From a virus: a stretch of 64,000 bases of DNA. Position numbers and translations under genes: made by a program. Below, piece by piece: positions 1 to 48,122 of this stretch; within the stretch, counting starts at the first letter, position 1, and every line of letters begins with the position of its first letter. Location: positions 1-64,000 of IMG/VR virus record IMGVR_UViG_3300015371_000021. The stretch is one strand, 5' to 3'. The notes below the pieces were generated by a model. That model was not told the origin of the DNA and ran no database searches. It was given only the letters and a program-made list of their open reading frames with translations.

Positions 1-1707
1 CCATACAGAGAAGGAATGCAGAGTAAAGGCATTTACGTTGGAGGTCCCCCACATAATTCGGCAGTGCTGCAGATCGATAATCGATCCAGGAGAGTTGTTC
101 GCCTGACCCGGCGTGCTGCCGCCTCCATACAAGTTATAGCGGTGGCGCTGCGGAATGATCTCGATGTCATCGAAAAACATCGTTATGTAACCCTGCGTAG
201 TCGAGGTTGCCGGCACCCAGAGCCCAGCGTACTTATGCGGCTGATTGATGTTGGTGCCGGGCGGCAGATTGCATGTGCCGCTCTCGCCGGCAGTCAGCGC
301 GCTGTAGTCTTGACCCGCGCCATACCAATGGTGCCATCCTGAGTCGAACTCTGAGTTATCGCCGTCACGTTGAAACTCAAAAAAATCCCACTCTAGATTT
401 TGGTTATTATTCAGCTGCCCTAACCCAAAATTGCCATTGCTTTCGGCGGCATTTGTCCAGTACGCCGGCCAGCCATTGGAATGCGCCACAGTACCGGCGA
501 TCGATATTACCGCCTCAAAATACCCGCCACCGCCAAACGCCACGCCGGTATTTCCGGCGCACGTGTTCAGCTCGTCGTTGAACGGACTGGTGCCGCCGGG
601 AATCCGGATCGTGCCGTCGCCATTCTGCACGATGTTGCCGCCGGCACCTGGAGTTCGGAACACGTTGACTCCCAGCGTCACATTCGGTCCCGCCGTTCGC
701 CTGGTAAAGCCAACCGCAGCCGCCACAGCCGGCACCCCCGGCGGTGGAGGCGGCGGCGGAGGCGCCGTCGCACTAACCGGCACGTTGATTACCGTACTAT
801 TCGGCCCCTGCCCCGTCGTGTTAGTGGCAAAGCCCTGCACATTGTACGTCCCGGTGCTCAGCCCAGAAATGACGATCCCAGGCGTCACCAAGGGCGAGGT
901 CGTGCCAATGCTGGTCCAATTCAACGTTCCGGTAATCGTTCCTGTCAACGACCACACGTACCACGTGCCGCCAATATTCACGTGATACAGGTTGTTGCCG
1001 ACCAGCAGCGCCTGCCCGAGATTCCAGGCCCCGGTCCAGACGCCGTTCGCCATCAGCGCATTGACCTGCCCGCCCGCGCTCGGCACCACCGTGTAAACGT
1101 TACCGAAGCTGTCGGTGAACGACGGCGCGTTCAGCGTGGTGTAGCGCGCCGTCGTCGCGTTCAAATACGTCCCTGACGTGCTCAGCTTATACTGTACCTG
1201 ATAGACCCCGGCGTTCTGTGCACCCCCCGTCGTCGGCACGGTGTAGGCAACCGTGATCGAGTTAGACGTCGTTCCCGCCGAGGCCACCACAGGCGCCCCA
1301 GGCGCTCCAGCGGCAGGCGGAGGCGGTGGTGGAGGCGGCCCAGGCGGCGAAGTGCCACCCGCCAGCCCTGGATGAGAGAACGAAAACCGCGTCGAGGTAA
1401 CCGACGAGCCCGCCGGCAACGGCAGCCATGACCCGGTGTTGTTGTCGCGATATTCCAGGGTCGGCGCCACCGTCATGTTGCCGATCGACCCCGACACCTG
1501 AAACGGCGTGAGGGGCGCCTGGGTACCGATCGTATCGATCGCCAGCGTTTCGCCACCACACGCCGCATAGGCATCCGGGAATAGCAGGCCGCCGATGGTG
1601 CCTAGAAAAGAGTGCTGTATTTGATCGCGAGGACACGCCTCGACCGGGTCAGCGCCCAGGAACACCCCCGCGCCAATCCCGCCCAGCAGTCGCCGCCGCC
1701 TCAACAT
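1..1707 (-). CDS. Tat-signal exported protein: FN3-like domain + GH16 glycoside hydrolase (3' end runs off the window)
   Basis: Not in the ORF track because there is no stop in the window. Manual translation from ATG at 1707 (in-frame TGA upstream at 1731-1729) is open to base 1. It starts MLRRRRLLGGIGAGVFLGADPVEA, has poly-Pro linkers and an FN3-like SNSITVAYTVP...YNVQGFATNTTGQGPNS, then GYFEA..GWPAYW..EWDFFE (GH16 ExDxxE motif, nt 393-376), ..HKYAGLW..ITMFFDD..HSFSVW. Confidence 0.85.
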   Translation of the reverse strand, partial: MLRRRRLLGGIGAGVFLGADPVEACPRDQIQHSFLGTIGGLLFPDAYAACGGETLAIDTIGTQAPLTPFQVSGSIGNMTVAPTLEYRDNNTGSWLPLPAGSSVTSTRFSFSHPGLAGGTSPPGPPPPPPPPAAGAPGAPVVASAGTTSNSITVAYTVPTTGGAQNAGVYQVQYKLSTSGTYLNATTARYTTLNAPSFTDSFGNVYTVVPSAGGQVNALMANGVWTGAWNLGQALLVGNNLYHVNIGGTWYVWSLTGTITGTLNWTSIGTTSPLVTPGIVISGLSTGTYNVQGFATNTTGQGPNSTVINVPVSATAPPPPPPPPGVPAVAAAVGFTRRTAGPNVTLGVNVFRTPGAGGNIVQNGDGTIRIPGGTSPFNDELNTCAGNTGVAFGGGGYFEAVISIAGTVAHSNGWPAYWTNAAESNGNFGLGQLNNNQNLEWDFFEFQRDGDNSEFDSGWHHWYGAGQDYSALTAGESGTCNLPPGTNINQPHKYAGLWVPATSTTQGYITMFFDDIEIIPQRHRYNLYGGGSTPGQANNSPGSIIDLQHCRIMWGTSNVNAFTLHSFSVW

Positions 1708-1797
1708 TGCGCCCAAAGTCCCCGTATCTCAGGGACCCCATGCCACAATCAGGGGACGTTTCGCTACCCGTAGACGCTAAATGTGGGGGAGGGGCGG

Positions 1798-2004
1798 TTA
1801 GGGGGCGTTATCGTTCACCGCCGCGTCGATCATCGCCTGCCACATCGCCACAATCAGATCGCGATTGCCGATCCATGACGCTACCGCGTCGATCATCACC
1901 GGATCAGGCTCGCGCGCCGCCTGCAGCGCCTCCCGCGCGCACTGCCGATAGTCACCCCAGTCCGCATCCTCGATCGCCGCCGCTACGCGCGCTAAGAGCT
2001 TCAC
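1798..2004 (-). CDS. hypothetical phage protein
   Basis: GTG start overlaps the endolysin stop; MKLLARVAAAIE...AREPDPVM...WQAMIDAA. Confidence 0.6.
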   Translation of the reverse strand: MKLLARVAAAIEDADWGDYRQCAREALQAAREPDPVMIDAVASWIGNRDLIVAMWQAMIDAAVNDNAP

Positions 2005-2606
2005 GGCACGTCCGACGGCGCTGGCGGGACCCCTAGCCCCTCCAAGCCCAAAGATGGGGGCGGGGGCGCCAACGAGTGCACAAACTGTGGCGCAGGCCAA
2101 ATGCTAGGCGCTGCGGCCACCGGTGCCGGCGGTGACGCCGGCGCGGGCTTAACCACGCCCACCGCCTTCTGATAGTTCCCCGGCCAGTCCGCCGGACGCC
2201 GCTTTCCTGGCTTCCACAGCCGCAGGTAATACTCCCATGCCGCGTCCTGCTCGCCGATCGCCGGCAGCGGGTCAGGGTCGCTCCACAGCAGCAGCCGACC
2301 AAATGCGCACGCCACCGGGTCGTGATATTGCAGTGCAGCAAAGGCTGAGGCCACGGGTATGTCGTTGGTGTCCAGCACCTGCCGCGCCAGATGCGGCAGC
2401 TTCTGCATCACCTCCGCCACTCCAATCCGCTCGAATTGCAAGTAGCTCAGCGCCGTGCCTTGTCCCAGCTGCTTACGAGCTGCCCAATTGGTCTCCTGCC
2501 CGGCGATCGCCACCAGCATCACCCGCGCCTCATCGCGCGTCATATACCCCGGCAGCAACGCCAGCCCAGGCTCGACGCAGCGCTCTAGGAAGAGGAGGGG
2601 GGTCAT
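2001..2606 (-). CDS. putative endolysin (lysozyme-like fold) with Pro-rich tail
   Basis: AIAGQET...ARKQ...ALSYLQFE...ACAFGRLLLWSDPDPLP...AWEYYLRLWKPGK pattern typical of a phage lysozyme-like family. Confidence 0.6.
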   Translation of the reverse strand: MTPLLFLERCVEPGLALLPGYMTRDEARVMLVAIAGQETNWAARKQLGQGTALSYLQFERIGVAEVMQKLPHLARQVLDTNDIPVASAFAALQYHDPVACAFGRLLLWSDPDPLPAIGEQDAAWEYYLRLWKPGKRRPADWPGNYQKAVGVVKPAPASPPAPVAAAPSIWPAPQFVHSLAPPPPSLGLEGLGVPPAPSDVP

Positions 2607-3700
2607 AGAGAACCACCGCCAATCACATTACCCGAACCCGTATTGATCACCGGGTTTTTGACATCGCTGTAAACATTGGACTGCACATTGTTCCCCTTGG
2701 ACGTGGCCTGCAGCACCACACCAGCCCGCAAAGTGCTGAAGCTATTACCGGTAATAGCTACCCCAGCCCCCGAATTGCTGTAAACCACGACACCATAAGC
2801 GCGCTCAAGTTCATTGAACCCCGAGAAACAGTTCCCCACGACCGCTCCACGATGCGTCTCGATCAGATTCAGTCCAACCGCCTGTCCAGACTTGGGGCCA
2901 GGAATAAATACTACGTTCCCGCTGAAGGTCAGGTCAGGAATGAAGGTGGCCGTATTGACCGCGGCAACCGTGCAGTTGAATTGCGAGGCACTTATGCTCA
3001 GCTGATCCAGCCCAGTTAAGCCGGCTACAGCATCGACCCCCACCATACAGCCAGTGAAATTCCCAGCAGTGATCGACACCCCCTGAACGTAGTCTCCATA
3101 CTCAACACCAGCGTTCAAGTAATTGAATGTGCAGCCGCTTAGGTTATAGACCACCGGCGGAAGAACCTCACTGCCGCGCACCAACAACCCCGTCCCTTGT
3201 GCCAGGGCGTTGCCGGTCACCATTACGTTGCTCAGATTCACATTCGACACATAATGAAGGTCTATACCGTACGACCAGTAGTTCGCTGCAGCTGGGGCAT
3301 CGGTGCCGCTCACCCACACGTTGCTGATGTCCGATAGCTCAGTATTGCCAGGGTTGGGGATGGCATTGGCGGAATTGAACAGCTTGATAGCCGCGTTGCC
3401 TGTGCCAGTTGCGCCCCCCAGCACGCTGAAGTCCCTCAGGTGCACCGAATGAAACTGATCCGACACGGTAAACCTAAAACCAGCATTGTCAGGGAACTGA
3501 AAGATCGTGTTGCGCACGCCAGCGCCAAACATGTGTAGGCGTCCGGTCCCGGTGATCGGCGCTGTGCAGACGTAGGTTCCAGACGGAACAAGGAGGGTTT
3601 GGTTATCCTTTAGACACACACGGACTGCCGCCTGAATAGCCACTGTATCGTCGGTCGAGCCGTCTCCCCTGGCCCCAAAGTTACCGACCGTGACGCTCAC
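2603..3700 (-). CDS. right-handed beta-helix protein (pectate lyase 3 / tailspike depolymerase-like)
   Basis: N-terminal VGNFGARGDGSTDDTVAIQAA...LLVPSGTY motif followed by Asn-rich beta-helix repeats; GTG start overlaps the upstream stop. Confidence 0.8.
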   Translation of the reverse strand: MSVTVGNFGARGDGSTDDTVAIQAAVRVCLKDNQTLLVPSGTYVCTAPITGTGRLHMFGAGVRNTIFQFPDNAGFRFTVSDQFHSVHLRDFSVLGGATGTGNAAIKLFNSANAIPNPGNTELSDISNVWVSGTDAPAAANYWSYGIDLHYVSNVNLSNVMVTGNALAQGTGLLVRGSEVLPPVVYNLSGCTFNYLNAGVEYGDYVQGVSITAGNFTGCMVGVDAVAGLTGLDQLSISASQFNCTVAAVNTATFIPDLTFSGNVVFIPGPKSGQAVGLNLIETHRGAVVGNCFSGFNELERAYGVVVYSNSGAGVAITGNSFSTLRAGVVLQATSKGNNVQSNVYSDVKNPVINTGSGNVIGGGSL

Positions 3701-4245
3701 CGCAGCGGCGCCTCGCCCAAAATCCAACACACCAACGACCAGCGCTCGCCCGACGTCACCGGCAAAGCCCGGTGCAGCATCATCGACGAAAACAGCGCCA
3801 TGTCCCCTCGCCTTAATTCCACCCGATCTCCCCCGACCTCCAGCCCGCCGCCTTCATAACTCTCGGGATCGGTCAGCTCGATAGACACGGAAATCTTCCG
3901 CCGGCTCATCGGCCCCGCGCCGATATCCACATGATTGCGATACTCCTGTCCCACGCCATACCGCGTCAGCTGCCCCGACCGGATCGGCTGAATGTCGTAC
4001 CAATACTTGGCATTGTATTCGTCGACGCGGGCGTTGATCCGATCGAACACCCACCCCGCGCCCTGCTCAGCATACAGCCACCGAATGCCGCTGTCCCTGA
4101 TCTGCTCCCCAGTATGGCGGTGCAGCACCGACCGATGCTCCGGCAGCGCCTCTGCCATCTCCAAGATGGCGCGGCATTCCAGCGCGGAAAACGCACCGTG
4201 CGAAACTTCGGAGTAGAAGAACTGATCCCACTCATGCATCAGCAA
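3697..4245 (-). CDS. 2OG-Fe(II) oxygenase (PKHD/prolyl hydroxylase-like)
   Basis: HxD (HVD)...YEGGGL...H(RALPVTSG)..RWSLVCW facial triad and RxS motif. Confidence 0.85.
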   Translation of the reverse strand: MLMHEWDQFFYSEVSHGAFSALECRAILEMAEALPEHRSVLHRHTGEQIRDSGIRWLYAEQGAGWVFDRINARVDEYNAKYWYDIQPIRSGQLTRYGVGQEYRNHVDIGAGPMSRRKISVSIELTDPESYEGGGLEVGGDRVELRRGDMALFSSMMLHRALPVTSGERWSLVCWILGEAPLR

Positions 4246-4438
4246 TCATCCCCATCACGAAACCAACCGCCCCAACCACAGTCACAGGAATGATCACCAC
4301 AGCAATCAGCCACGGGCTAACGCCCAGCCGAAACTGCGCATAGACGCAGCACATCGCCAGCAACATACTCATCGCATACAGCGCACAAAACATGACGACG
4401 AACCGCAGCAAAACCGCCACCGTGTCCCATTCGTTCAT
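4232..4438 (-). CDS. small two-TM membrane protein
   Basis: Two hydrophobic stretches; overlaps the downstream start. Confidence 0.6.
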   Translation of the reverse strand: MNEWDTVAVLLRFVVMFCALYAMSMLLAMCCVYAQFRLGVSPWLIAVVIIPVTVVGAVGFVMGMIADA

Positions 4439-4480
4439 TTGTAGCCCCCAGAGGGGCCTAGCCGATGCGCCCGCGTCGGA

Positions 4481-4711
4481 TCAAGTCAGGCGGTCAGGCG
4501 TAGGGCATGTGCCCAACCATGCTGCCACATGCTGGTGCCCCGCAGTGCCCAGCGATCCTGCCACATGCTGGTGCCCCGCAGTGCCCAGCGATCCTGCCGC
4601 ATGGGAATAGTCCCCCATGTATTGCTGCTGCCCCGCATACATCTCCCGCCACCACAGCGGCCCCCGGTCTTCCTGCCAACCGTCCGGTTTGGTCGTATTT
4701 TCATCGGTCAT
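4481..4711 (-). CDS. hypothetical protein with 12-aa tandem duplication
   Basis: MTDENTT..., AGSLGTAGHQHV x2. Confidence 0.45.
   Translation of the reverse strand: MTDENTTKPDGWQEDRGPLWWREMYAGQQQYMGDYSHAAGSLGTAGHQHVAGSLGTAGHQHVAAWLGTCPTPDRLT
4522..4603. repeat. 36-bp perfect tandem duplication
   Basis: ctgccacatgctggtgccccgcagtgcccagcgatc x2 plus a partial third copy. Confidence 0.95.
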
Positions 4712-4895
4712 GCTGATTGTCCTGCGAAGTGTAGTATCCGCCACGAAGGGCGGCGATTGCTTCTGATGCAGCTTCTAGGAAGTCAGACCACTCTGGGTTC
4801 GGCGGAAGGTTCGCAGCAATTGCACGAGCTACGCGATCAATCTCCGCAGCGTCCAATTCGGCCTCCGTCCAGCGGGTCGTCTGCTCATTAGCCAT
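4701..4895 (-). CDS. hypothetical protein
   Basis: ORF with GGAGG RBS in a run of small minus-strand genes. Confidence 0.6.
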   Translation of the reverse strand: MANEQTTRWTEAELDAAEIDRVARAIAANLPPNPEWSDFLEAASEAIAALRGGYYTSQDNQHDR

Positions 4896-5194
4896 CCTGA
4901 TCCTCCACCAGCGGAACCGTCACCCATATTAGCCGCCCATCGCGGTCGCGAATGCGTTGCTGAAGCCGAGGCCAGCGTTCAGGGCCAATCCAGCGCAGAG
5001 CCCCCTCTCTTTGCAGGATTCGGTCCATACTCTCCAGCAGCCCCTCGGTCGTTTCGTTATTCGCCATTTAGATGTTCCTCCCGCTTGCCAAACCTCATCC
5101 ACAGCCAAAATACCGGAATATCAGGCGAACCTGGTTGTTTGCCCGCTCCACTTCGAGGCGAGGTGGGGTCGTTTGGGATGTGGGTTTCTGATCG

Positions 5195-5428
5195 TCACTC
5201 ACCGACCACCTCCATCGCCTGCTCGATAGCTTCAAGCTGATCGGCTGCATCCAACACTTCAGTCAACGCCTCCTCGCAATACTTCAACTCACCGTCGAAC
5301 TCCGCCATGAGACGCGAGAGGTGCTTGGCAGCCATGAGAGTGCGGGAGCGTGCCTTCGAGAGAGCGCGCTCAGCTTCGGCGGCCCACTCCGGGGTGCCGG
5401 GAGTAAGTGTCGTTTGCTTATCCCCCAT
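5195..5428 (-). CDS. hypothetical helical protein
   Basis: GGAGG RBS, MGDKQTTLTPG... Confidence 0.6.
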   Translation of the reverse strand: MGDKQTTLTPGTPEWAAEAERALSKARSRTLMAAKHLSRLMAEFDGELKYCEEALTEVLDAADQLEAIEQAMEVVGE

Positions 5429-5621
5429 GCTGATCCTCCAGTCTCGTGCGTCGCCGAATGAACTGTGCCCTGCTGAGACCCACAGCACGCGCTCCAGCCC
5501 CAGTTCCCAGCGTCATAAACTTGCGTATCTTGTCGTCAGATACCGTCACCGGCCGACCAGGAAGGCGACCCTTTTTGGCAGCCTTACGCATGCCATCCAA
5601 CGTTTTCTTGCTGCGCGACAT
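5418..5621 (-). CDS. stand-alone resolvase/invertase-type HTH DNA-binding protein
   Basis: KTLDGMRKAAKKGRLPGRP arm + GARAVGLSRAQF HTH resembles the C-terminal part of serine resolvases; no catalytic domain. Confidence 0.55.
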   Translation of the reverse strand: MSRSKKTLDGMRKAAKKGRLPGRPVTVSDDKIRKFMTLGTGAGARAVGLSRAQFIRRRTRLEDQHGG

Positions 5622-5651
5622 CGCTGATTTATACACTCCGCAAACTAAGCG

Positions 5652-5685
5652 TTGACAGGGTATAGTAAAGGTCTCATATTGTCAA
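5652..5685. promoter_or_regulatory. overlapping bidirectional sigma70-type promoters
   Basis: Plus strand: TTGACA(5652)-17nt-CATATT. Minus strand: TTGACA(5685)-17nt-TACCCT. Lies between divergent genes. Confidence 0.7.
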
Positions 5686-5720
5686 TCAGGAAGGCTAGTA
5701 GGAAACCCCGGATAGAAGCC

Positions 5721-5897
5721 ATGGACCCCTTTGAGACAATTTCCGAAGTCTTCATTGAGACGCGGCGTATTGCCCTAGAACAGGCTATTGCGGCCTGTGA
5801 AAAAGAGCGCGTATCTGACCCGGATAACGCAGATGACGATACGTATAACCGAGCTATCGGTCATTGCGTGGATGCCATACGCGGACTGATGGCCTAA
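5721..5897 (+). CDS. hypothetical protein
   Basis: MDPFETISEVF...YNRAIGHCVDAIR downstream of the promoter. Confidence 0.6.
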   Translation: MDPFETISEVFIETRRIALEQAIAACEKERVSDPDNADDDTYNRAIGHCVDAIRGLMA

Positions 5898-5904
5898 ACC
5901 CCAA

Positions 5905-5994
5905 TTTGCGATGAGCGCGCGTGAGCATCGCAGATCGTGGCCGGAGCGTAGTCCGGCAATTGGCGGGGCGTCAGCGCACGCAGGCGTCCCGCCA
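5905..5994 (+). other. three consecutive RNA hairpins (structured leader)
   Basis: atttgcgatg/catcgcagat; gccgga/tccggc; tggcggggcg/cgtcccgcca. Confidence 0.6.
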
Positions 5995-6023
5995 CATGAA
6001 AGCAAACCCCCGAAAGGAAGCCG

Positions 6024-6104
6024 GTGAAAGACATAGTGTTCATAATGGCGTTGCTAAGTCTTCTGTTTCTCGGCTACCTCGGCGGCGCCGGATACATTCA
6101 CTAA
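6024..6104 (+). CDS. 26-aa hydrophobic peptide
   Basis: AAAGGAAG RBS, GTG start, MKDIVFIMALLSLLFLGYLGGAGYIH*. Confidence 0.55.
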   Translation: MKDIVFIMALLSLLFLGYLGGAGYIH

Positions 6105-6123
6105 ACCCCGGATAGGAACAGAG

Positions 6124-7041
6124 ATGAATATCATAACTTGGCCATATGTCCTGCGTCGCGGTCATAACGACAACCCAGCTGGTGGCGCGTGTGCAATGGA
6201 TGCAGTGAACTGGCTAGTGCACGGTAAACATGGTGATACACCAGAATGCGCCTGCCCCGTCATTACATCTTATGTCATTCGCGGAAACGACGCGATGCCA
6301 GATGACGTACGGCAAAACCTATTGCCGTACTTGCACCGAATCGCGGGTAGTCGCAGCAAGACGCATCAAGTTGCGCGAACACGCATTCTTGCTCTCGGCG
6401 CATTGCGTGTATGTGCCCCACGTGCATTGGACTTGGCTGGCTTACACGATCATGCAGCCACGCTACGGAGTTTGCCTGACAACGTAGACATAACGGCGGC
6501 AGTGGTAAAATGCCTAGCGGCCGTCAGGCCGGCGCGAAGAAGGGCAAAGGCGACGGCAAAGACGAATACAGAAGCAGCAGCAGCGCGCATAAGGGCCGAG
6601 ACGACGGCATGGATGGTAACGAAGACAGCAGCGGCGGCATGGGCAGAGGCGGCGCGGACAATGACGGAGGCAGAAGAAACGAAGGCGTGGACGATGACGA
6701 TGACAACAGCAGAGGCGGCGGATGCAGCGAAGGCGACGGCAGAGACAATAACAGATATAGCAGCATGGACAGCATTGAAAGCGGCGGAAATAGCAGCAAC
6801 AATGGTGGATACAGTGGTGGATGCAGTGGTGGATGCAGCGGCATGGGAGATGGAGGCGTGGGGCGACTACTTCGTTATCCTAAACGCGGTGCTTAATGCT
6901 GGCCCCCAAGGCGAGCCGTGGAGCGCTGATCAGATCGAAATAGGCAGCGCCCTATACCGATCCGCCAATGGCGCCGCCAACATTGGCTCAATGCTCAGTC
7001 TCGGCGATGCTACCCGCCCACACGACGGACAAATCTTCTAA
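6124..7041 (+). CDS. phage protein with conserved Cys/His N-terminus and Ala/Thr-rich variable middle (paralog of 20865..21674)
   Basis: Shares NPAGGACAM.AVNWLVHGKH.D.P.CACPV and DYFV.L..VLNAGPQGEPWSAD with the paralog. Confidence 0.8.
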   Translation: MNIITWPYVLRRGHNDNPAGGACAMDAVNWLVHGKHGDTPECACPVITSYVIRGNDAMPDDVRQNLLPYLHRIAGSRSKTHQVARTRILALGALRVCAPRALDLAGLHDHAATLRSLPDNVDITAAVVKCLAAVRPARRRAKATAKTNTEAAAARIRAETTAWMVTKTAAAAWAEAARTMTEAEETKAWTMTMTTAEAADAAKATAETITDIAAWTALKAAEIAATMVDTVVDAVVDAAAWEMEAWGDYFVILNAVLNAGPQGEPWSADQIEIGSALYRSANGAANIGSMLSLGDATRPHDGQIF

Positions 7042-7236
7042 CTGCTCCAGCAAAATCTCAAGTATCTGCGCCGTGTATGGCTCAAAGTCGCTCCCATAGC
7101 CCGCCTTCAGCCCAGCCACTAACAACGTAGCCAACGCAGCCACCACGTCATCCCATGACTGGCCACAACATAGCTCATTCAGCCTCATGCCCAGCTCTAC
7201 AATCTCGCCGACCTCTAGAGGAATATCGTCAGCCAC
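6988..7236 (-). CDS. hypothetical protein
   Basis: ORF coupled to the upstream gene. Confidence 0.5.
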   Translation of the reverse strand: MADDIPLEVGEIVELGMRLNELCCGQSWDDVVAALATLLVAGLKAGYGSDFEPYTAQILEILLEQLEDLSVVWAGSIAETEH

Positions 7237-7429
7237 CGCCGTCCAAACCCTCTATCGCAATCTCCAGCATATCGGCACAGTCGCGAATGGACTCGTCGCC
7301 TTGCTCGTCAGCGCACTTGCGCATCGCCGCAATGGCCGTCCGATACCCATTGTAAAAACTCATGTGCACCATCGGCTGAATACAACACTCCCAGTGCTCG
7401 CTTAGGTCTGGCTTGTGCCAAGCCATCAC
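7229..7429 (-). CDS. hypothetical protein
   Basis: ORF in an overlapping minus-strand gene chain. Confidence 0.55.
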   Translation of the reverse strand: MMAWHKPDLSEHWECCIQPMVHMSFYNGYRTAIAAMRKCADEQGDESIRDCADMLEIAIEGLDGGG

Positions 7430-7926
7430 GACCCGATCGCCCGCCGCAATGCGTCCCCGGCGTCTGCCCGATCCAAGCCCTCACGCAAGCGCTGGCGATT
7501 AGGTCGCGATACCGTCTGCTCGCTCAGGTCTTTCAGCACGCGCTCGATCGCCTGGCCGCCGTCCTTGTCCTCAGAGTCGGCCACCAAAAGCAGCTGGGCT
7601 TCCATATTGCCGACCTGCTGCCGACGTATTTCAAGCTCCGCCTCTAGCGCCAAGATGCGCCGGTTGGCCAACTCGTTCTGCGCCGACGCGGTGACCAGCG
7701 CGGTGTTCAGGTCGCCGATCGTGTTATCACGCCGGCAGATGATGTGCTCTTGGTGCGCGACCAAGCGCTTCATCGCATCCAGGGTGTTGGCCTCAACCTG
7801 CTCGGGATTATAGGTGAATTGATTCGCCTGCTCCGCGTCCCATACAGTGTCGGTGCGCCCAGGCTCGACTCGGACGTCCTCGATAATCAGCGTCCTACCG
7901 TGCTCGTCCTCTTTATAAGTCGTCAT
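7426..7926 (-). CDS. hypothetical coiled-coil protein
   Basis: RBS, heptad-rich middle. Confidence 0.65.
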   Translation of the reverse strand: MTTYKEDEHGRTLIIEDVRVEPGRTDTVWDAEQANQFTYNPEQVEANTLDAMKRLVAHQEHIICRRDNTIGDLNTALVTASAQNELANRRILALEAELEIRRQQVGNMEAQLLLVADSEDKDGGQAIERVLKDLSEQTVSRPNRQRLREGLDRADAGDALRRAIGS

Positions 7927-8075
7927 TCCTTCCCCCCCTCCGCCAGATGCTCACGCAGCTCGCGAATACGCTCCTCGATCGCTTCATGCACATAGGTGCC
8001 GGCGGCGGTCTGCCGCAACGCTATCAGCAACGTCAGCAGCGTTCGCATAAGCAACGCGACCTCCGCAGGTGTCAT
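7923..8075 (-). CDS. hypothetical protein
   Basis: MTPAEVALLMRTLL..., ATGA overlap with the next gene. Confidence 0.5.
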   Translation of the reverse strand: MTPAEVALLMRTLLTLLIALRQTAAGTYVHEAIEERIRELREHLAEGGKE

Positions 8076-8136
8076 TTGTTCGTTCCCTGTTCTACGTCCG
8101 ATAAGTGACCATTTTCGGACCCTTGCGGTGCAGCGT

Positions 8137-8715
8137 TCACGCCAGCGCCACGAACCCGAACGCCCCAGCATCATCCGCCCGGCCAGCGAGGCCGCCGGCA
8201 AACAGGACCATAGACGTCCAACCAGGATAATGCACCGACAGATCAGGTCGCGCCCAGATGCCCACGCCGTAGCGTGCAGCACACTCCTTTGCGGTCGCGC
8301 ATATCCCCGAATGCAACTCAGCATCGAGCGCGCGGCTCTCCCGTGGCCATAGATTATATGGATGCGCGATAATCAGAGTGTTCTTGAACGAACTCGGGCC
8401 GCGCGCGCCAAGCTGCCGATAGTGCTTCCAATGGTCCAACAGATCATGGTGATTGCCGGCAATGAACTCGCGATAGTATCCGCGCCTCACATAAAGGCCG
8501 CGCCCAGTTTCCCGCCACTCACCACCGAGAATGCGCGGCAGCATCTCTCGCGCATAGCAATTGCGGACACACTTCTCACTCTCGAGGTTAGCCTCGCATG
8601 CCTCACGATAAGCGCGGCGCGATACAGGGTCCGTAGGATGGGGCGCCGCCTGCAGCGCCTTAAAAGCCACCTCGCGACGCTCCATCGCGCCGTCGAGGGC
8701 GGAGTATTGCGTCAC
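8137..8715 (-). CDS. hypothetical protein
   Basis: 192-aa ORF coupled by GTGA overlap. Confidence 0.6.
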   Translation of the reverse strand: MTQYSALDGAMERREVAFKALQAAPHPTDPVSRRAYREACEANLESEKCVRNCYAREMLPRILGGEWRETGRGLYVRRGYYREFIAGNHHDLLDHWKHYRQLGARGPSSFKNTLIIAHPYNLWPRESRALDAELHSGICATAKECAARYGVGIWARPDLSVHYPGWTSMVLFAGGLAGRADDAGAFGFVALA

Positions 8716-8936
8716 CGCGCTCTAGCCGTATGCAGGAGTACATACCGCGCCCAACGCTTGTCGGGGCTTTTTTCCCAATGCGTGATGATGTGGTGCCCAG
8801 CCTTACGCAGTTCATAAATCCGCGCGGCTAGGCGAAAGCAGTCAAAGCGACGCAGTGCAAGTTGCGGAGTGATTGCCCGCCCTTCCTGTAACGCGGCGAG
8901 AATCCTGCGGTTTTGTGAGTCGGTGGCAGCACTCAT
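8712..8936 (-). CDS. winged helix-turn-helix protein
   Basis: SQNRRILAALQEGRAIT..ALRRFDCFRLAARIYELRKAGH.I, a common phage wHTH. Confidence 0.8.
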   Translation of the reverse strand: MSAATDSQNRRILAALQEGRAITPQLALRRFDCFRLAARIYELRKAGHHIITHWEKSPDKRWARYVLLHTARAR

Positions 8937-9139
8937 CGCACAACACGCTCCGGCATCGGCGTCACCTTCGGATGATCGGTCGCGATCTGTGCCGGCTCGT
9001 CATCTTCGTTCACCGCCTTGCGAAACGTCTTGAGTCCGTGGCCGAAATCGGCCATCAGCTTGCTGACCTTGTTGCCACCGAACAGCAACAGCACGACAGC
9101 CAGCACGATCGCCCAGTGTGCGAGAGACATCGCGCCCAT
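8933..9139 (-). CDS. tatA: twin-arginine translocase subunit TatA/E
   Basis: MGAMSLAHWAIVLAVVLLLFGGNKVSKLMADFGHGLKTFRKAV: TM helix, FG hinge and amphipathic helix of alphaproteobacterial TatA. Confidence 0.9.
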   Translation of the reverse strand: MGAMSLAHWAIVLAVVLLLFGGNKVSKLMADFGHGLKTFRKAVNEDDEPAQIATDHPKVTPMPERVVR

Positions 9140-9261
9140 CACTCAGCTCCCAAAGCACAGAGTATAAGGACAACGGTACCAACTAGCCCAAGGCCGGACA
9201 CCAGCCCGACAAAAGCGTCACCCGTTACCTGCCACACGGCCAGGATGGCGTTGGTGCCCAT
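9139..9261 (-). CDS. 40-aa single-TM peptide coupled to tatA
   Basis: GGGAG RBS; MGTNAILAVWQVTGDAFVGLVSGLGLVGTVVLILCALGAE*; TGATG overlap with the tatA start. Confidence 0.55.
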   Translation of the reverse strand: MGTNAILAVWQVTGDAFVGLVSGLGLVGTVVLILCALGAE

Positions 9262-9277
9262 TGGATCGCTCCCAGGC

Positions 9278-9661
9278 TCACATGCCCATGGCTTTTTTGA
9301 GCAATATCAAAAGTGCCCGCTGCTGGTCATCCGTCAGGTTGTCCGCGTTCAAGGTGCGCGGCTCCTCGTGAATCACATCCGGTTTGCCGACGCCTCTATC
9401 CATGACAGCTTGCGCTGCCATGAGGCCAACACGCGTGTCAGAGTCCTCCATCAGCTCCACCAAGCGCGCAGCGGCGCGCGGCGAGGCTTCCCGGCAGATT
9501 CTCTGGCACTCCAGATAAGCCCCTGATTTTCCTGAAGGATTTCCGCGCTGGCCCTTTTTCCACGGAGGCGCAATACGACCACCATGCGGCTGCGGCAGCA
9601 GTTCCCTTCCGCTAGCCGAATTTCCGGTAGCCGATCCGCTTGATGTAGCGGTTTCGCTCAT
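9278..9661 (-). CDS. putative terminase small subunit (DUF5681-like)
   Basis: PPWKKGQRGNPSG...AAARLVELM...AAQAVMDRGVGKP motif. Confidence 0.7.
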   Translation of the reverse strand: MSETATSSGSATGNSASGRELLPQPHGGRIAPPWKKGQRGNPSGKSGAYLECQRICREASPRAAARLVELMEDSDTRVGLMAAQAVMDRGVGKPDVIHEEPRTLNADNLTDDQQRALLILLKKAMGM

Positions 9662-9723
9662 TTCCCGCACTTACCACGACTTACAAGAATTCCGCTACCT
9701 CACGAACACGTGATACACAGAAC

Positions 9724-9778
9724 AGGGATATTTCCCTTGACTGTCTCGCTGTTCCTGACTATCTCAGATGCGAGACAG
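9724..9778 (+). promoter_or_regulatory. promoter with operator palindromes
   Basis: AGGGATATTTCCCT immediately before TTGACT; inverted repeat ctgtctcgc/gcgagacag spans the promoter. Confidence 0.6.
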
Positions 9779-9892
9779 AACCCAACACCGAGGCTAAGGG
9801 AATACAGCAAGAGGCGAAGCGGCGGAACAGTCGATAGTGCTCTTGGGGAAGTCCCGAGTTGGTTGAAAAGCCTCAGAAGAACGGAGGGAACA

Positions 9893-10201
9893 ATGAATAA
9901 GCCATACATCGAACAGGACTGCACCATCACACACGAAGGCAAGTCCTACACTTCTGGTGGAGCAGCTGTCACAGCAGATTACATCATCGCCTATCCGCTG
10001 AAGAATGGTGTCCTTGGAGACTGGCACGGTCGACCAATCGGCACATGGCGATCAGTTTCGACATGGCGCGTCAATTCGTGGATCAGCAGCCACATGCACC
10101 AAATCGAGGCCATCGTTAACAGTGTAACTTATACAGGACGCGGCTTCGGCGAAGGCATGGTCTATCGCGGCAAGCGCAAGGTATCGCGCTACGGCGGCTA
10201 A
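9893..10201 (+). CDS. hypothetical protein
   Basis: GGAGGG RBS, MNKPYIEQDC... Confidence 0.65.
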   Translation: MNKPYIEQDCTITHEGKSYTSGGAAVTADYIIAYPLKNGVLGDWHGRPIGTWRSVSTWRVNSWISSHMHQIEAIVNSVTYTGRGFGEGMVYRGKRKVSRYGG

Positions 10202-10284
10202 CCCAGACACCGGGCAGCGTGGGGCGCTGCCCTAGCCTGGAGTAGCCGAAGCTAGCAGGAACGAAAATAACCGGGGACAAACCA

Positions 10285-10512
10285 ATGAACGACAACGACC
10301 TTCGCTATGAAACTCAGCCCTCCGAACTCGACATCCGCGTGATGGGCATGCTGATCGACACCTACTCGGTGCCGCAGCTGTTAGAGCTCGTCGTGGACCA
10401 CTGCGCGGAACGCGCAGACCGCGCGAAAGCGGCGGGATGCAGCGCCAAAGCCGCAGTATGGAACCGCTACGTTAACCGAATCGAGGCGGCAATCACCACG
10501 ATTGCCGCGTAA
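10285..10512 (+). CDS. hypothetical protein
   Basis: ORF with RBS in a plus-strand cassette. Confidence 0.6.
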   Translation: MNDNDLRYETQPSELDIRVMGMLIDTYSVPQLLELVVDHCAERADRAKAAGCSAKAAVWNRYVNRIEAAITTIAA

Positions 10513-10529
10513 GCAACGGAGACGGAGGA

Positions 10530-10733
10530 ATGAAACGCGCGGCGCTAATGGCGCTCCTATGCCTCGCTTTGGGCGGCTGCGTTGACCGGCACGCCCAATT
10601 CCAGGACGCGAACGGGCACTGGGTCGGGGGCTGCAGCGCCACCGGCTGGGGGATCATCGGGGCGATCGTCGCGGCCTCGAACTACAACACGTGCATGGAG
10701 CGGGCGCAGGAGAAAGGTCTGCGACCGATCTAG
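10530..10733 (+). CDS. lipoprotein
   Basis: MKRAALMALLCLALGG-C lipobox; GGAGG RBS. Confidence 0.75.
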   Translation: MKRAALMALLCLALGGCVDRHAQFQDANGHWVGGCSATGWGIIGAIVAASNYNTCMERAQEKGLRPI

Positions 10734-10752
10734 CTCGAGCAAGGAGGAAACA

Positions 10753-11070
10753 ATGACAGAAGAACCACACTGGCGCATCCGCCGGACGGCGGCGGGCTTT
10801 GTCGAACTACGCGACGAAGACTTCCTTGGCCGCGAGTGGCGGCGGCAATTCTGGGTGCCGCAGGAGGGTGGCGTCATCCGGGAGAGCAATGACGGGCGAT
10901 GGGGATACGACCACGAGGTGTGCGAGTTGCTGGCCCACGGCGGGAGGCCGCTGCAGGCGACGCAGTCCACCCTACTGGACGTAATCCGCCGCGAATACCG
11001 CCGTGCCGTCGCCCAGGAGCGCCGCCAGGGCGTTCTGGACTACAAGGGCACCCTACCCACCGGCCCATAG
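10753..11070 (+). CDS. hypothetical protein
   Basis: AAGGAGG RBS, MTEEPHWRIRR... Confidence 0.7.
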   Translation: MTEEPHWRIRRTAAGFVELRDEDFLGREWRRQFWVPQEGGVIRESNDGRWGYDHEVCELLAHGGRPLQATQSTLLDVIRREYRRAVAQERRQGVLDYKGTLPTGP

Positions 11071-20864: not shown

Positions 20865-21674
20865 ATGGAATTCTGGCCTTACAAACTCCGCGCCGGACAT
20901 ACCCGCAATCCGGCGGGTGGTGCTTGCGCCATGGCAGCGGTCAACTGGCTGGTACACGGCAAGCACAGCGATCGGCCGAAATGCGCCTGCCCGGTTGTCG
21001 GTCGCTTCGTCATGGCCGGTAACGACGCGATGGATGACGACGATCGGCAGCGCCTGTTGCCGTATCTGCACCGGATTGCTGGCAGCCGCAGCCCCGAGTA
21101 CGCCCAGTCGCGGGCAGCCATCATCGTGAGCGCTGCACTGCGGATTTGGGCGCCGAAATGGCTGGATGATGCCGGGCTACCGATTCCCGCACGTCAGCTG
21201 CGCGAGTTGCCTGACCACGTGAGCGCCCAAGAAGCCTTCGAGGTCGCGAGGCAGGCTGAGCGTATAGCGCTGAAAAAGGCTATGCGGACGAATACGACAG
21301 CGGAAAGAAAGTTTGGATCGTTGCAGGGTTTCTTAATGAAGACCCTGCAGACAGCTAAGGCAGAGAGGGCCGCCAACGTGGCACGGGGGGCTGGAGAGGC
21401 GATAGTGCTTCTGTCGCAGGTAGAGAATGCAAGCCGGGTGTTGCCCTGGTCGTTGTCACGCTGGCCAGCAGCGCAGGCGATATTGCTGTCGGCGGTGAAT
21501 GAGGCGGTTATGGCGTTGCGTGCGCCGCGGAACTGCTGGGACGATTACTTCGTGGTCCTAGACGACGTGCTCAATGCCGGGCCGCAGGGCGAGCCATGGA
21601 GCGCTGACTTTATCGACCATGGGACGGCGGCGTATCGCGCTAAGGGCGGCAAGGCGGTGCTGACGGAGGCGTAG
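20865..21674 (+). CDS. paralog of 6124..7041
   Basis: Conserved N- and C-terminal blocks, divergent middle. Confidence 0.8.
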   Translation: MEFWPYKLRAGHTRNPAGGACAMAAVNWLVHGKHSDRPKCACPVVGRFVMAGNDAMDDDDRQRLLPYLHRIAGSRSPEYAQSRAAIIVSAALRIWAPKWLDDAGLPIPARQLRELPDHVSAQEAFEVARQAERIALKKAMRTNTTAERKFGSLQGFLMKTLQTAKAERAANVARGAGEAIVLLSQVENASRVLPWSLSRWPAAQAILLSAVNEAVMALRAPRNCWDDYFVVLDDVLNAGPQGEPWSADFIDHGTAAYRAKGGKAVLTEA

Positions 21675-21676
21675 GC

Positions 21677-21871
21677 ATGTGGCCGCGCTGGATGCAGAAG
21701 TCTTTCCTGCTGACCGCGGGGGCGTTGTATCTCTCGTTATGGGTGTTCTGGTGGTGGGTGATGGTAATCCTGTCACTCATCGCCTTCCCAATCGTTCTCC
21801 TTTGCGCGGTGCAGGACGTGCGTCGCCAGCTGGAGGACGAGGCACGACGGGGGGTCAGGGGGCCGGGCTAG
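21677..21871 (+). CDS. small membrane protein
   Basis: Long hydrophobic segment; last gene of the plus operon. Confidence 0.55.
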   Translation: MWPRWMQKSFLLTAGALYLSLWVFWWWVMVILSLIAFPIVLLCAVQDVRRQLEDEARRGVRGPG

Positions 21872-22086
21872 GGCTTAGGCGGCGGCGTGGTCTTAGCGGT
21901 GTTGTCATCGGGGATCAGGTGGCCGAGCACGTAGACGATTAGTGCCACTATTGCATCCACCTTAGGGTCTCCGGTCACCACGTTGCTGAGCCCAGCTGAC
22001 AGAGCGGTGCCCACGATGGTCAGCGCATGGATAGTGGTCGGCTGGCGCGCCCACGCAGAGAAGGTTTCCCCGCCGAATATTTTCAT
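21868..22086 (-). CDS. putative holin
   Basis: 72 aa, two TM segments, WARQPTT motif, end of the late operon. Confidence 0.55.
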   Translation of the reverse strand: MKIFGGETFSAWARQPTTIHALTIVGTALSAGLSNVVTGDPKVDAIVALIVYVLGHLIPDDNTAKTTPPPKP

Positions 22087-22087
22087 C

Positions 22088-22534
22088 TCAGTGTTCCTTG
22101 CCGTTGCTATAGCGGCTCTGATCGAGAAGCCGTCCGGTCATTTCCATGTGCTTTTGGGTGAGCGCTTGTAGGTCGACCACCAGCTTTGCAGTGCCGGCGC
22201 TTTCTCTTTCCAATCCCGCCAAGCGCTGTTGGAAGTTCAGCATTACCTCGCGCTGCGCCGTGTATCCGGTTTCCACCGCACCGACCCGGCGATCGAGGTT
22301 GACCACCTGTTCGTCCTGACGCGCATTGATCAGGCTGCCGCGTTCGATTGCCGTATAGACCCGGTCGTTCAGCACGGTGAGGTGCTGTTCGATGGCGCGA
22401 ATAGCGGCGGTGTCGACCTCGACTTCCCGCTTCATTTGGCCGACGAAGTAGATCGCGCCTCCGAGCGTGGAGATGATCGAGACGAGAAATATGAGGTCTC
22501 GCCGCAACGTGGAAGGAGGACCGACACCGCTCAC
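22088..22534 (-). CDS. N-terminal TM + coiled-coil protein (lysis accessory/spanin-like)
   Basis: One TM helix followed by heptad repeats. Confidence 0.6.
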   Translation of the reverse strand: MSGVGPPSTLRRDLIFLVSIISTLGGAIYFVGQMKREVEVDTAAIRAIEQHLTVLNDRVYTAIERGSLINARQDEQVVNLDRRVGAVETGYTAQREVMLNFQQRLAGLERESAGTAKLVVDLQALTQKHMEMTGRLLDQSRYSNGKEH

Positions 22535-22551: not shown

Positions 22552-22794
22552 CTATTTTATGGGGGGAGGCGGCGCGGCGTTTTTGGCTTGCAGCTCAGCA
22601 AGCTGGCGCTGATCAGACGCAACCTGTGCACGCAGGCGGCTGATCAGGCTGAGTAGCTCGGCGCCGGTGTTGTTGCAGGCGGTGATTTCGTCCTGCGGAG
22701 TCGCGCCGCCACTTTGTGCTGGCTGGGCCTGGACAGCGAAGGGGAGTAGTGCTGTCAAGGCAACGATTACTGTCAGCGAAGCGAGTTTTGCCAC
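22552..22794 (-). CDS. small secreted protein
   Basis: GTG start MAKLASLTVIVALTALLPFAVQA signal peptide. Confidence 0.55.
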   Translation of the reverse strand: MAKLASLTVIVALTALLPFAVQAQPAQSGGATPQDEITACNNTGAELLSLISRLRAQVASDQRQLAELQAKNAAPPPPIK

Positions 22795-24707
22795 GGAATA
22801 CCTCTGGTTGTGTTCAGTCCGAAAATGAGCATAGGACGGCCTGGCGTTGCAACCCTTGGTGTAAACAGCAGCTGCTGCCACCAGGACCATTGGCCGGATT
22901 TGACGCTGTTGTCGGCGTTCAGCGTGCCGTTCGGGTTGGAGCCCGGGCGGTTGCCCCAGACGAACCAGTTGGTCGACATCGGCTGATTACGGCCGGGGAA
23001 GGCTGGCCCACCCGAGGCGACGCCGTTGGCGTAGGAGACGAAGGTGGCCATAAAGTTCGAGTCGTTCGGCAGGTTGCCGTTCGAGCCATCGCAGGAGCAG
23101 CCAACCTCAGAGATGAACACCGGCGCGGTGCCGGCGATCTCCAGATAACCGAAGAAGGTGTTCCAGGCGGAGATGGCTGACGCGCCGTTGTCTGGGGTGA
23201 CGCCCCACACGTTGCTGGGATAGAGGTCGACCGAATAGGCCACCTTGTTTGCTGGCGGTCCGTTGGTGACCCCGCCAACCGGAGACTGCGCGACCCCGGT
23301 GAGGTCCATCAGCCCCGCGCCACTATTCAGCGGCTGGCCGTTGAGCAGGGTGGAGGTGCGGTTAACCGGCCCCGGCACGATCATGATGATGTTCGGGTTG
23401 ACCGCGAAAACCAGGTTGCCGAGTTCCTGTGCAATACACATCCAGTCGGTATCGCCTGAGCCACAGTTCCAGCAAATGCCGGGATTGACCCCGCCGCCTG
23501 GCTTGGCTTGGCCGGTAAATGAGCCGGTCACCAGCGGCCGGTGGTGGATTTGGTAGGCAATCACAGTTGGTTCGATAGTGTACCGCTGCATTAGGGCGAC
23601 GGTGTTGTTTTCCCACTGTACCAGCGTAACGTTGGACCCATTGCCGCAGCCGTCGTCGTTGCCGCTGGAGCCGCCGCTGTCATAGGGCAGGCCGTTAGCT
23701 TGCACCGACCAACACGGGCTGGCGGGCGAAGCAGGCAGCTCATTACCCTGATGTGAGAGGATGACCTTGAGGCCTGCGGCCTTGGCGTTCGCGACGCAGG
23801 CGTCGATCTGAGCGAAGGTATTGCAGCCGGTTGCCGGTAGCGTGCCGCCCGAGGATGGTCCGTTGGCCGGCGGCGCGGCGACAGGACCACTGTAGGTCTG
23901 GGTATTGGGGTCGAAAATGTGCCAGGTGCTGTCGCGAGCGTCGGAGATGTAAACTGTGGTCTGGTTGTAGTAGGCCATTTGGAGAGCGTTGTGACCGATG
24001 TCGCTGAAGTTGCCGAGGCTGACTTCCGCGCCACCAGCCGGGGTCCAAAACGCGTTCAGCTCGGTATCCAGTCGGTAACTGTCCCCGGTGACCGTGGTGA
24101 AGCTCTGACCACCGTTGATAAAGATTGTCGCGATGCCAGGAGTCGAGCCGCCGCTTGGCGGACCAGTGGCAGGTGGGGCGGCGACAGGACCGCCGACGCT
24201 AGGGCCGACTGGGTTGAAGATATGCCACGTGCTGTCGCGGATATCTTGGATGTAGACGGTCGTGTTGTTGTAGTACGCCATCGCGAAGGAGTTGAAACCG
24301 ATATCGCTGATTGAGCCGATCGATTGCTCGCTGCCGCCAGAGGGCGTCCAGAACGCGTTGCCTTCGGTGTCCAGGCGATAGGAATTGCCCTGCACGTCGT
24401 TGAATGACTGGCCGGGGCCGATAAAGGTGGTGGGGATGCCAGGGCCGCCGGTGCCGGCGTTGAGCGCCATGTCGCGCCAAGGAATGACGACGCAGTTGAA
24501 CTGCCCGGTGCTGCGGATTGCCGCCATAGTGCCGTCGTTCGGCGAGCCCAAGAACTGGGTGCATGCCAGCCGCTGCTGATTGCCGGCGCTATCGATAAAC
24601 TGGTTGCCGTTGGTCGACAGGAACCCGCTGGCGAGCGGCGAGCCGGTGATCTGCGCCCACGCGGGCTGCGCCACCAGCAGCAGTAGGAAGGCGAGGAACC
24701 GGATCAT
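22773..24707 (-). CDS. secreted GH5-family (cellulase-like) protein with degenerate active site and two inserted repeats
   Basis: Sec signal MIRFLAFLLLLVAQPAWA; GFLSTNGNQFID, AKAAGLKVIL, NKVAYSV.LYP, APVFISEVG and WFVW motifs of GH5. Confidence 0.8.
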   Translation of the reverse strand: MIRFLAFLLLLVAQPAWAQITGSPLASGFLSTNGNQFIDSAGNQQRLACTQFLGSPNDGTMAAIRSTGQFNCVVIPWRDMALNAGTGGPGIPTTFIGPGQSFNDVQGNSYRLDTEGNAFWTPSGGSEQSIGSISDIGFNSFAMAYYNNTTVYIQDIRDSTWHIFNPVGPSVGGPVAAPPATGPPSGGSTPGIATIFINGGQSFTTVTGDSYRLDTELNAFWTPAGGAEVSLGNFSDIGHNALQMAYYNQTTVYISDARDSTWHIFDPNTQTYSGPVAAPPANGPSSGGTLPATGCNTFAQIDACVANAKAAGLKVILSHQGNELPASPASPCWSVQANGLPYDSGGSSGNDDGCGNGSNVTLVQWENNTVALMQRYTIEPTVIAYQIHHRPLVTGSFTGQAKPGGGVNPGICWNCGSGDTDWMCIAQELGNLVFAVNPNIIMIVPGPVNRTSTLLNGQPLNSGAGLMDLTGVAQSPVGGVTNGPPANKVAYSVDLYPSNVWGVTPDNGASAISAWNTFFGYLEIAGTAPVFISEVGCSCDGSNGNLPNDSNFMATFVSYANGVASGGPAFPGRNQPMSTNWFVWGNRPGSNPNGTLNADNSVKSGQWSWWQQLLFTPRVATPGRPMLIFGLNTTRGIPWQNSLR

Positions 24708-47924: not shown

Positions 47925-48122
47925 TCAACGCGCCCGCCAGCCGATTGTCGTCGGACGCACCTGACTGCCGATGTTGAACCCCTGAGTGAATGCGTCGCGC
48001 TTAAACCCGCCAGCCGCACCTCCGCCGGCACCGATCGCGCCCTCTGACCGCCGCGCGCGCCAGGGCAGCAGAAACGCCAACAAAAGTGCGCCTAGCGAAC
48101 GGCGACTAAGTAACGCTCTCAT
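47925..48122 (-). CDS. small protein with twin-arginine-like signal
   Basis: ATGA-coupled; MRALLSRRSLGALLLAFLLPW. Confidence 0.55.
   Translation of the reverse strand: MRALLSRRSLGALLLAFLLPWRARRSEGAIGAGGGAAGGFKRDAFTQGFNIGSQVRPTTIGWRAR

Follow-up and report, generated by a model that had tools for sequence, protein, structure and literature searches.

What might a bacteriophage gain from carrying the gene for a single subunit of the twin-arginine translocation (Tat) machinery of protein export? The question is raised by a window of 64,000 nucleotides, bases 1–64000 of the 72,189-bp IMG/VR virus record IMGVR_UViG_3300015371_000021 (an uncultured soil phage, hereafter G000), in which a minus-strand gene at 8933–9139 encodes, from its ATG, an orphan TatA of 68 residues. 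The answer that we favour, tentatively and at somewhat short of an even chance, is that this is an auxiliary TatA which raises the capacity of the host Tat system for a phage cargo, the candidate cargo being a glycanase with a twin-arginine (RR) leader encoded further along the same strand.

That the product of 8933–9139 is a TatA had been proposed in a preliminary description of this DNA, and its membership of the TatA/E family is borne out by profile comparisons. It scores 38.4 bits against Pfam PF02416 (TatA_B_E; cut-off 21) and 57.5 against TIGR01411 (tatAE; cut-off 53.9), and lies under the cut-off of every species-level equivalog model (best NF001940, 70 vs 83). Moreover, in an alignment of 15 sequences, made up of the phage TatA, three near relatives and 11 TatAs obtained by translating genome records (nine of them under the label Alphaproteobacteria or that of a member taxon, the other two under Peiella sedimenti and Reyranella sp.), the phage protein keeps all 17 invariant columns. 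Kept within it are H8 and W9, a short transmembrane (TM) stretch (VLAVVLLLF), the F20-G21 hinge, K24 and the amphipathic helix (LM.DFG.GLK.F.K), and the EDDE acidic patch is likewise present; the functional roles of the conserved residues of TatA are known from work in E. coli. The absence of tatB and tatC, also remarked upon in that description, extends to the whole 72,189-bp record, which gives one PF02416 match (the TatA itself) and no PF00902 match, and a TatC or TatB partner would have to be supplied by the host, much as TatE depends on a tatABC located elsewhere.

An orphan subunit with no TatBC of its own might also act in the opposite sense, as a dominant-negative component of the host Tat system, by which it could block the export of cell-wall amidases or exclude other phages. 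In this regard, there are a few lineage-specific substitutions next to invariant positions (SLAHWA for SIWHWI, and FGHGLKTFRKA for FGKGLKSFKKG). No invariant position is itself altered, however, and the RR-leader proteins of the phage and of its relative, described below, would be blocked too, all of which makes inhibition very improbable.

The history of the gene appears to be a long one. Its GC content at third codon positions (GC3) is 0.77, the level of the capsid, portal and terL genes. A search of species genomes returned 258 confirmed cellular TatA matches, of which the best 80, from which identities and labels were taken, are 37–66% identical to the phage protein (the top one 66% over ~50 residues) and by record title mostly alphaproteobacterial, including Bradyrhizobium, Xanthobacter, Rhodospirillales and unnamed Alphaproteobacteria metagenome-assembled genomes. 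Since the closest sampled cellular TatA is only 66% identical, tatA is no fresh capture from any sampled genome. The three near relatives in the alignment (P0002–P0004) are 77–88% identical, lie on contigs of 729–2021 bp, and differ from the phage TatA almost solely in the C-terminal tail. A single-protein search of IMG/VR with TatA gave no close relative, and a scan of JGI metagenomes gave, besides the same phage (L098, 99.98% identical), matches of ≤ 67% identity. Near-identical copies of the tatA region occur in runs from rhizosphere and soil that belong to 10 named studies (two of these being possibly the source of the record), with no RNA data set listed among the holders; contigs of four runs over 8600–9750 were identical or other-organism pieces only, with no variants usable for an analysis of selection. 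Seven GenBank phage records with a TatA match, all at ≤ 40% identity, were taken as bacterial DNA and set aside: two bear the titles of Salmonella enterica genomes, one is unannotated and 1,849 bp long, and four are records of Acinetobacter phage MD-2021a, of 57–220 kb, annotated tatA_1 or tatA_2.

The candidate cargo gene opens the window. As the preliminary description had it, the gene runs on the strand of tatA from 1707 to beyond position 1; followed across the contig joint and the 123-bp repeat to genome position 72016, it encodes 585 residues. Read from the ATG at 1707, the protein begins MLRRRRLLGGIGAGVFLGADPVEA, followed by Cys, and is laid out as a leader, an N-domain of ~100 residues, Pro-rich linkers, a β-strand middle part, the homologues of which carry Pfam fn3, and a C-terminal domain resembling glycoside hydrolase family 16 (GH16). 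GC3 favours this frame below ~1620, but over the leader stretch it gives no clear preference. The Tat consensus is S/T-R-R-x-F-L-K, to which the leader, M-L-R-R-R-R-L-L-G, is a loose match: hydrophobic positions follow the RR pair, with no S/T before it and no F/K after. The hydrophobic (h-) region comprises 13 residues with a mean hydrophobicity of 1.88, 54% of them small, and V-E-A, a putative A-x-A-type cleavage site, stands directly before Cys25. By our own measures, as distinct from a trained predictor, the h-regions of the RR leaders are Gly/Ala-rich with mean hydrophobicities of 1.3–1.9, compared with 2.0–2.5 for Sec-type leaders of the same phages; in other words, the RR leaders look Tat-type. 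Their interpretation as lipoprotein signals was rejected, the residue before the first Cys being A, D or P and the spacing variable. A second RR leader that had been pointed out, at 47925–48122 on the minus strand, fared less well: an open reading frame (ORF) of 65 residues exists there, but its GC content hardly differs between the three codon positions (GC1/2/3 of 0.64/0.65/0.67), the relatives lack any counterpart of it, and it is probably not a gene.

For the C-terminal part of the 1707 protein, the evidence comes from remote comparisons. The last 250 residues are common to 21 database proteins with varied N-termini, and over 22 sequences two positions never vary (E300 and D302) and a third, E305, is ≥ 90% conserved, which gives the ExDxxE motif of GH16. 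A profile built on the alignment finds a GH16 κ-carrageenase in the PDB (E 6.5e-4), with the motif aligned to its EIDFPE. An AlphaFold2 model (predicted local distance difference test, pLDDT, 78.7) has a β-jelly-roll form, and the top Foldseek matches to it are GH16 β-1,3-glucanases, laminarinases and carrageenases (E 2e-6 to 1e-5, TM-score on the target ~0.4–0.5). The protein has no Pfam match at E ≤ 0.01, PF00722 included, and none in NCBIfam, and PF00722 itself is found in one of the 21 homologues (P0020). On these profile and model comparisons, the domain is a distant GH16-like relative.

Conservation of the leader can be followed into G001, which of the related phages with a complete genome is the closest (67,331 bp, terminally repeated), the portal and capsid of which are ~66% and 89% identical to those of G000. 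Directly upstream of the RR gene in G000 lies a gene for a small conserved protein (1798–2100, minus strand, likely start GTG 2004, with a GTGA overlap with the preceding stop), which serves as a synteny anchor; its homologue in G001 (L013:18603–18923) is 40% identical over 57 residues (E 3e-8) to the protein of window positions 1798–2004. After the G001 anchor come two tandem proteins starting MLIARRSLLAGAAAALPGMAYADCG and MIGRRALLGGGAAIIAGPAVAEPCG, the first of which matches the NCBIfam model for EglC, an endo-1,3-1,4-β-glycanase, at E 1.3e-16. A further protein, P0034, from a short contig, starts MTLLRRRTLLGG, shares 79% identity with the G001 protein and has the R-R-x-L-L-x-G pattern. All of the RR-leader genes, in G000, G001 and P0034, are placed after this same small anchor gene. 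The leaders of the G000 protein and of the two G001 paralogues share 16 invariant columns; among the positions invariant in all three are both arginines and the L-L-x-G that completes R-R-x-L-L-x-G, both cysteines, and P-x-A-Y-A-C. Judged from these sequences, the GH16-like proteins of this phage group have the RR leader as a conserved feature. Since the RR glycanases are syntenic in G001, which has no tatA, we take the cargo to have come first and tatA to be a later addition in one lineage.

The auxiliary role that we favour for TatA would then take the following form. The gene would be an accessory one, derived from an alphaproteobacterial host lineage, acquired long ago and kept intact, and its protomers would be added to the host TatBC receptor during infection. 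The phage would make a large, multi-domain GH16-like glycanase with its twin-arginine leader, which would fold in the cytoplasm and dock on host TatBC. Crossing would need many TatA protomers, and by enlarging the pool of these the phage TatA would allow export to keep pace late in infection. The leader would be cut after VEA in the periplasm, and the glycanase might then attack a β-glucan or exopolysaccharide of the host envelope, leading to the escape of progeny or to receptor destruction. We infer that the genes are expressed, that the glycanase is targeted to Tat and that phage TatA mixes with the translocon of the host, and likewise which glycan is the substrate and that the phage benefits.

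Several observations weigh against this. There is no TatA match in G001, though RR glycanases are present in it; an RR cargo therefore needs no phage TatA, which is to that extent dispensable. Indeed, none of five related records has a TatA match (G001 being complete and the other four being fragments of 11–31%). The tatA and cargo genes are ~7 kb apart, in a block otherwise unrelated between G000 and G001. The alignment of leaders consists of three short sequences and comes without a statistic, and a whole-protein BLASTP comparison of the G000 and G001 RR proteins is not significant (best E 1.4). The gene-caller models P0005 and P0033 omit the leader, P0005 (446 residues, the model of the 1707 protein) beginning 139 residues further in. 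Moreover, 13 of 494 non-coding-like ORFs (a handful being wrap-around duplicates) also satisfy our permissive RR rule, which means that the leader by itself is not beyond chance and that its support lies in its conservation in the relatives. It is also the case that TatBC, rather than TatA, may limit export.

The comparison with G001 also bears on whether tatA is of any use at all in infection, as it could be a passenger, a host gene that was captured into a hypervariable region of accessory genes and has scarcely any role, or none, for which it is selected. Its absence from the nearest complete relative is as would then be expected, and so is its location: the first gene of the array in which tatA lies has a homologue in G001, but between this homologue and terL G001 carries an unrelated gene set, and in the corresponding 13.5-kb block of G000 no gene has a G001 counterpart at E < 1e-5. 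Likewise, the single-protein and alignment-based searches of IMG/VR between them yielded just one other TatA-bearing viral contig. Set against this are the intactness of all 17 invariant columns, with a core nearly unchanged in the 77–88% relatives, the lack of any cellular TatA closer than 66%, a GC3 at the level of the phage core genes, and codon overlaps between tatA and both of its neighbours. Furthermore, the same phage is near-identical across the rhizosphere and soil runs of the 10 studies (the two possible sources included). On balance, we regard a mere passenger as rather unlikely.

The other TatA-bearing viral contig, found by the alignment-based scan of IMG/VR, is G006 (25,613 bp, 41% complete), which is unrelated to G000 and myovirus-like. 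Its TatA is an ORF of 45 residues, with the TM and amphipathic helices only, scoring 24.5 against PF02416 (cut-off 21) and 57.4 against TIGR01411 (cut-off 53.9). The gene is the last ORF of an inserted cassette (L179 4458–6698), the ORFs of which have no family matches and which is flanked by a head protein and by the neck terminator of a sheath-bearing tail module. The first ORF of the cassette encodes 64 residues starting MRRRDFLTGSAALAAFA, with a canonical RRRDFLTG leader and a weak coding signature. A search for relatives of the cassette returned G006 itself only. Both phage TatAs, of G000 and G006, match phrog_29532, a family of function unknown in PHROGs, from which it follows that TatA-like proteins of phages or prophages are already catalogued, albeit without interpretation. 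The tail region of G006 also encodes a 915-residue protein with a Sec-type leader.

The pairing of an RR-leader ORF with TatA in one G006 cassette points to phage cargo, and in this respect runs counter to the proposal that TatA instead sustains the export of host substrates, such as the respiratory Rieske-type proteins, such that the cell stays energised. Host maintenance of this kind would suit a TatA of fully canonical appearance, encoded at the head of an array among small genes of unknown function and far from the cargo gene, and it would suit G001, which has the RR cargo and no TatA. There is, however, no sign in this analysis of the host TatA pool falling on infection, and we consider the proposal improbable.

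The auxiliary-TatA reading has also to be seen against the immediate surroundings of the gene. These form a hypervariable accessory region where a long minus-strand array begins, away from the lysis and late cargo genes. In minus-strand order, the first gene of the array is followed by 16 bases containing GGGAG, then by a 40-residue ORF, tatA, a winged-helix gene and a 192-residue ORF. Successive members from the 40-residue ORF onwards overlap: its stop and the tatA start share TGATG, the tatA stop and the winged-helix start share ATGA, and the winged-helix stop and the 192-residue ORF share GTGA. The first array gene (9278–9670, minus strand) had been described as terS-like, which did not hold up, and its function is not established: its product reaches 16.9 bits against DUF5681, below the cut-off of 27.5, has no PHROG match, and finds as its sole GenBank-phage match a protein annotated 'hypothetical protein'; moreover, terL is 13.5 kb downstream. 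Its G001 homologue (L013:15236–15607) is 45% identical. The winged-helix protein (8712–8936, minus strand) belongs with HTH_39 (PF14090, 64 bits; phrog_4973). The 192-residue ORF (8137–8715, minus strand) is of unknown function, with no match in Pfam, PHROGs or NCBIfam and nothing usable from an Atlas search. A promoter and terminator scan of 1–11000 gave counts not above those of shuffles.

The 40-residue ORF (9139–9261, minus strand) is coupled to tatA through the TGATG overlap, as the preliminary description had stated, and is itself a probable, though not certain, gene. It has GGGAG 8 nucleotides upstream, and encodes one hydrophobic stretch with no K or R. Its GC1/2/3 of 0.68/0.46/0.61, in which GC3 is not the top of the three, is a weak codon-position signature, and it has no match in Pfam or PHROGs and no homologue in the relatives. 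A complex prediction for TatA with the 40-residue peptide gave a score of 0.00. As a long shot, one may envisage that the two together form a phage-controlled gate through which folded glycanases leave the cell before lysis, either by way of host TatBC or without TatC. Were this so, the gate would represent a novel kind of device for phage egress, and orphan tatA, met here in two unrelated lineages, would be a recurrent auxiliary gene of soil phages.

The coupling to a small hydrophobic peptide also lends itself to a holin-like role, in which TatA, alone or with the peptide, would thin or depolarise the inner membrane and time lysis without TatC. TatA is known to destabilise membranes, its TM helix is short, and the G006 protein is reduced to TM and amphipathic helices in 45 residues. 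A mere pore-former, however, would not need every TatA-specific invariant residue, and tatA does not adjoin endolysin or spanin genes. The gene at the endolysin position, 6.3 kb from tatA, is 2001–2606 (minus strand), which encodes a phrog_3108 protein (1.4e-32) with no Pfam match even at E ≤ 1; in G001 this position is taken by a GH108 endolysin (L013:17630–18172, 22.3 bits vs 21.2). Furthermore, G000 has a separate lysis-like cassette at 21868–22534 (minus strand), composed of a putatively holin-like ORF of 72 residues, with two hydrophobic stretches, and a putatively spanin-like ORF of 148 residues, in which an N-terminal anchor precedes a long polar tail. The 72-residue ORF is conserved in G001, and the presence of such genes in a relative without tatA speaks against TatA as the trigger of lysis. 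We accordingly assign the holin-like role a low probability.

Lipoprotein-type leaders, LLSGC and LLAGC, are found in two G001 ORFs, L014 1883–2122 and L016 5879–6310, one of them just upstream of terL and the other beside a holin-like gene; from their sequences, these are possible spanin components of G001.

Export by this phage appears not to be confined to the RR glycanase. At the end of the structural array, at 22773–26489 (minus strand), are genes for two proteins with Sec-type leaders, of 644 residues (with a weak GH5 cellulase match) and 593 residues, both conserved in G001. The 593-residue protein starts MRR, its G001 homologue lacks the RR pair, and both leaders are strongly hydrophobic. 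The far end of the array also holds an ORF with a leader-like N-terminus. With the RR glycanase included, the large proteins that the phage apparently exports number at least three.

As to the phage itself, the record has direct terminal repeats of 123 bp, giving a circularised length of 72,066, and a completeness rating of 100%. Its PHROG matches include a primase/helicase, portal, a weak major head protein, tail fibre and virion structural proteins, and a 1511-residue protein has a transglycosylase domain at its N-terminus. The terL gene, outside the window at genome 65955–67793 (phrog_38, E 2.7e-68), is ≤ 34% identical to that of any GenBank phage, the top matches being Roseobacter, Paracoccus and Rhizobium phages. 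A search with the capsid gene of the genomes of 185,579 species, one genome each, gave no prophage relative.

Some further features of the genome may be recorded. Between the RR glycanase and terL are genes for proteins of 1038 residues (genome 68869–71985, minus strand) and 397 residues (67664–68857, minus strand), with no family match. Two 2OG-Fe(II) oxygenase genes are present, at 3697–4245 and at genome 65312–65857, both on the minus strand; one adjoins the gene for a 375-residue pectate-lyase-like protein and the other is directly downstream of terL. A pair of plus-strand paralogues at 6124–7041 and 20865–21674 (44% identity, E 2e-70) share a conserved Cys-rich N-terminus and have no family match, and one of the two is located within the tatA-bearing minus-strand array, though on the other strand. 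The ORF at 4481–4744 contains a tandem duplication of ~36 bases at 4505–4603 (92% self-match), with AGSLGTAGHQHV repeated in the translation. A DNA methyltransferase gene (57151–58521, plus strand; phrog_67, E 3.2e-55) lies on the opposite strand within the structural gene block.

If the phage TatA does work with host TatBC, then Tat capacity would limit some infections, researchers in the Tat field would have a natural, divergent TatA that fits a foreign receptor, and there would be a route in rhizosphere bacteria for the pre-lysis export of folded phage depolymerases.

No report of a phage-encoded TatA came up in full-text searches of the open-access literature, judged by the titles returned, and the remark in the preliminary description that no characterised phage system is known to pair TatA with Tat substrates of its own stands to this extent. 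In a 2026 review of Tat evolution, the mentions of phage do not concern a phage tatA (PMC13673990), and elsewhere the speculation is offered that phage Mu may draw on a portion of the Tat machinery (PMC9239132). One likeness on the cargo side is WceF of Pantoea stewartii, which is described as a chromosomally encoded, tailspike-like glycan enzyme with a Tat signal, the final localisation of which was not analysed (PMC7949094). WceF and the 1707 protein have in common a glycan-cutting enzyme, a phage-like architecture and a twin-arginine signal, and they differ in that WceF has a tailspike-like fold and a chromosomal gene, whereas the protein here is GH16-like and phage-encoded (PMC7949094). 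A second likeness is to rhizobial ExoK/EglC (NF052454): the syntenic G001 RR protein matches this model, at the E of 1.3e-16 given above, and the G000 protein shares the GH16 fold and the ExDxxE motif. The G001 score of 60.5 is, however, far under the equivalog cut-off of 700, and the G000 protein has no Pfam or NCBIfam match.

On the translocase side, stand-alone TatA paralogues exist in bacteria as E. coli TatE and B. subtilis TatAc. Like these, the phage TatA is a small TatA/E-family protein which passes TIGR01411, is encoded away from any tatC, and presumably joins a TatBC or TatC receptor encoded elsewhere; unlike them, it is carried on a virulent-type phage genome, its codons overlap with those of phage genes, and the receptor would be the host's. 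A cargo-linked Tat operon is also known, in phoD-tatAd-tatCd of B. subtilis, which resembles the present case in placing a translocase component and an RR cargo on one replicon, whereas the phage has no TatC, its cargo gene is ~7 kb off and its relative keeps the cargo without tatA. Phages that encode one component of a host machine are also known, the cyanophage psbA being an auxiliary gene of just this type, though for a protein-export subunit no such report came up in the open-access searches. The parallel would be that in each case a host complex is supplied by the phage with a single subunit that is limiting, with the difference that TatA is a subunit for protein export, rather than a metabolic or photosynthetic one.

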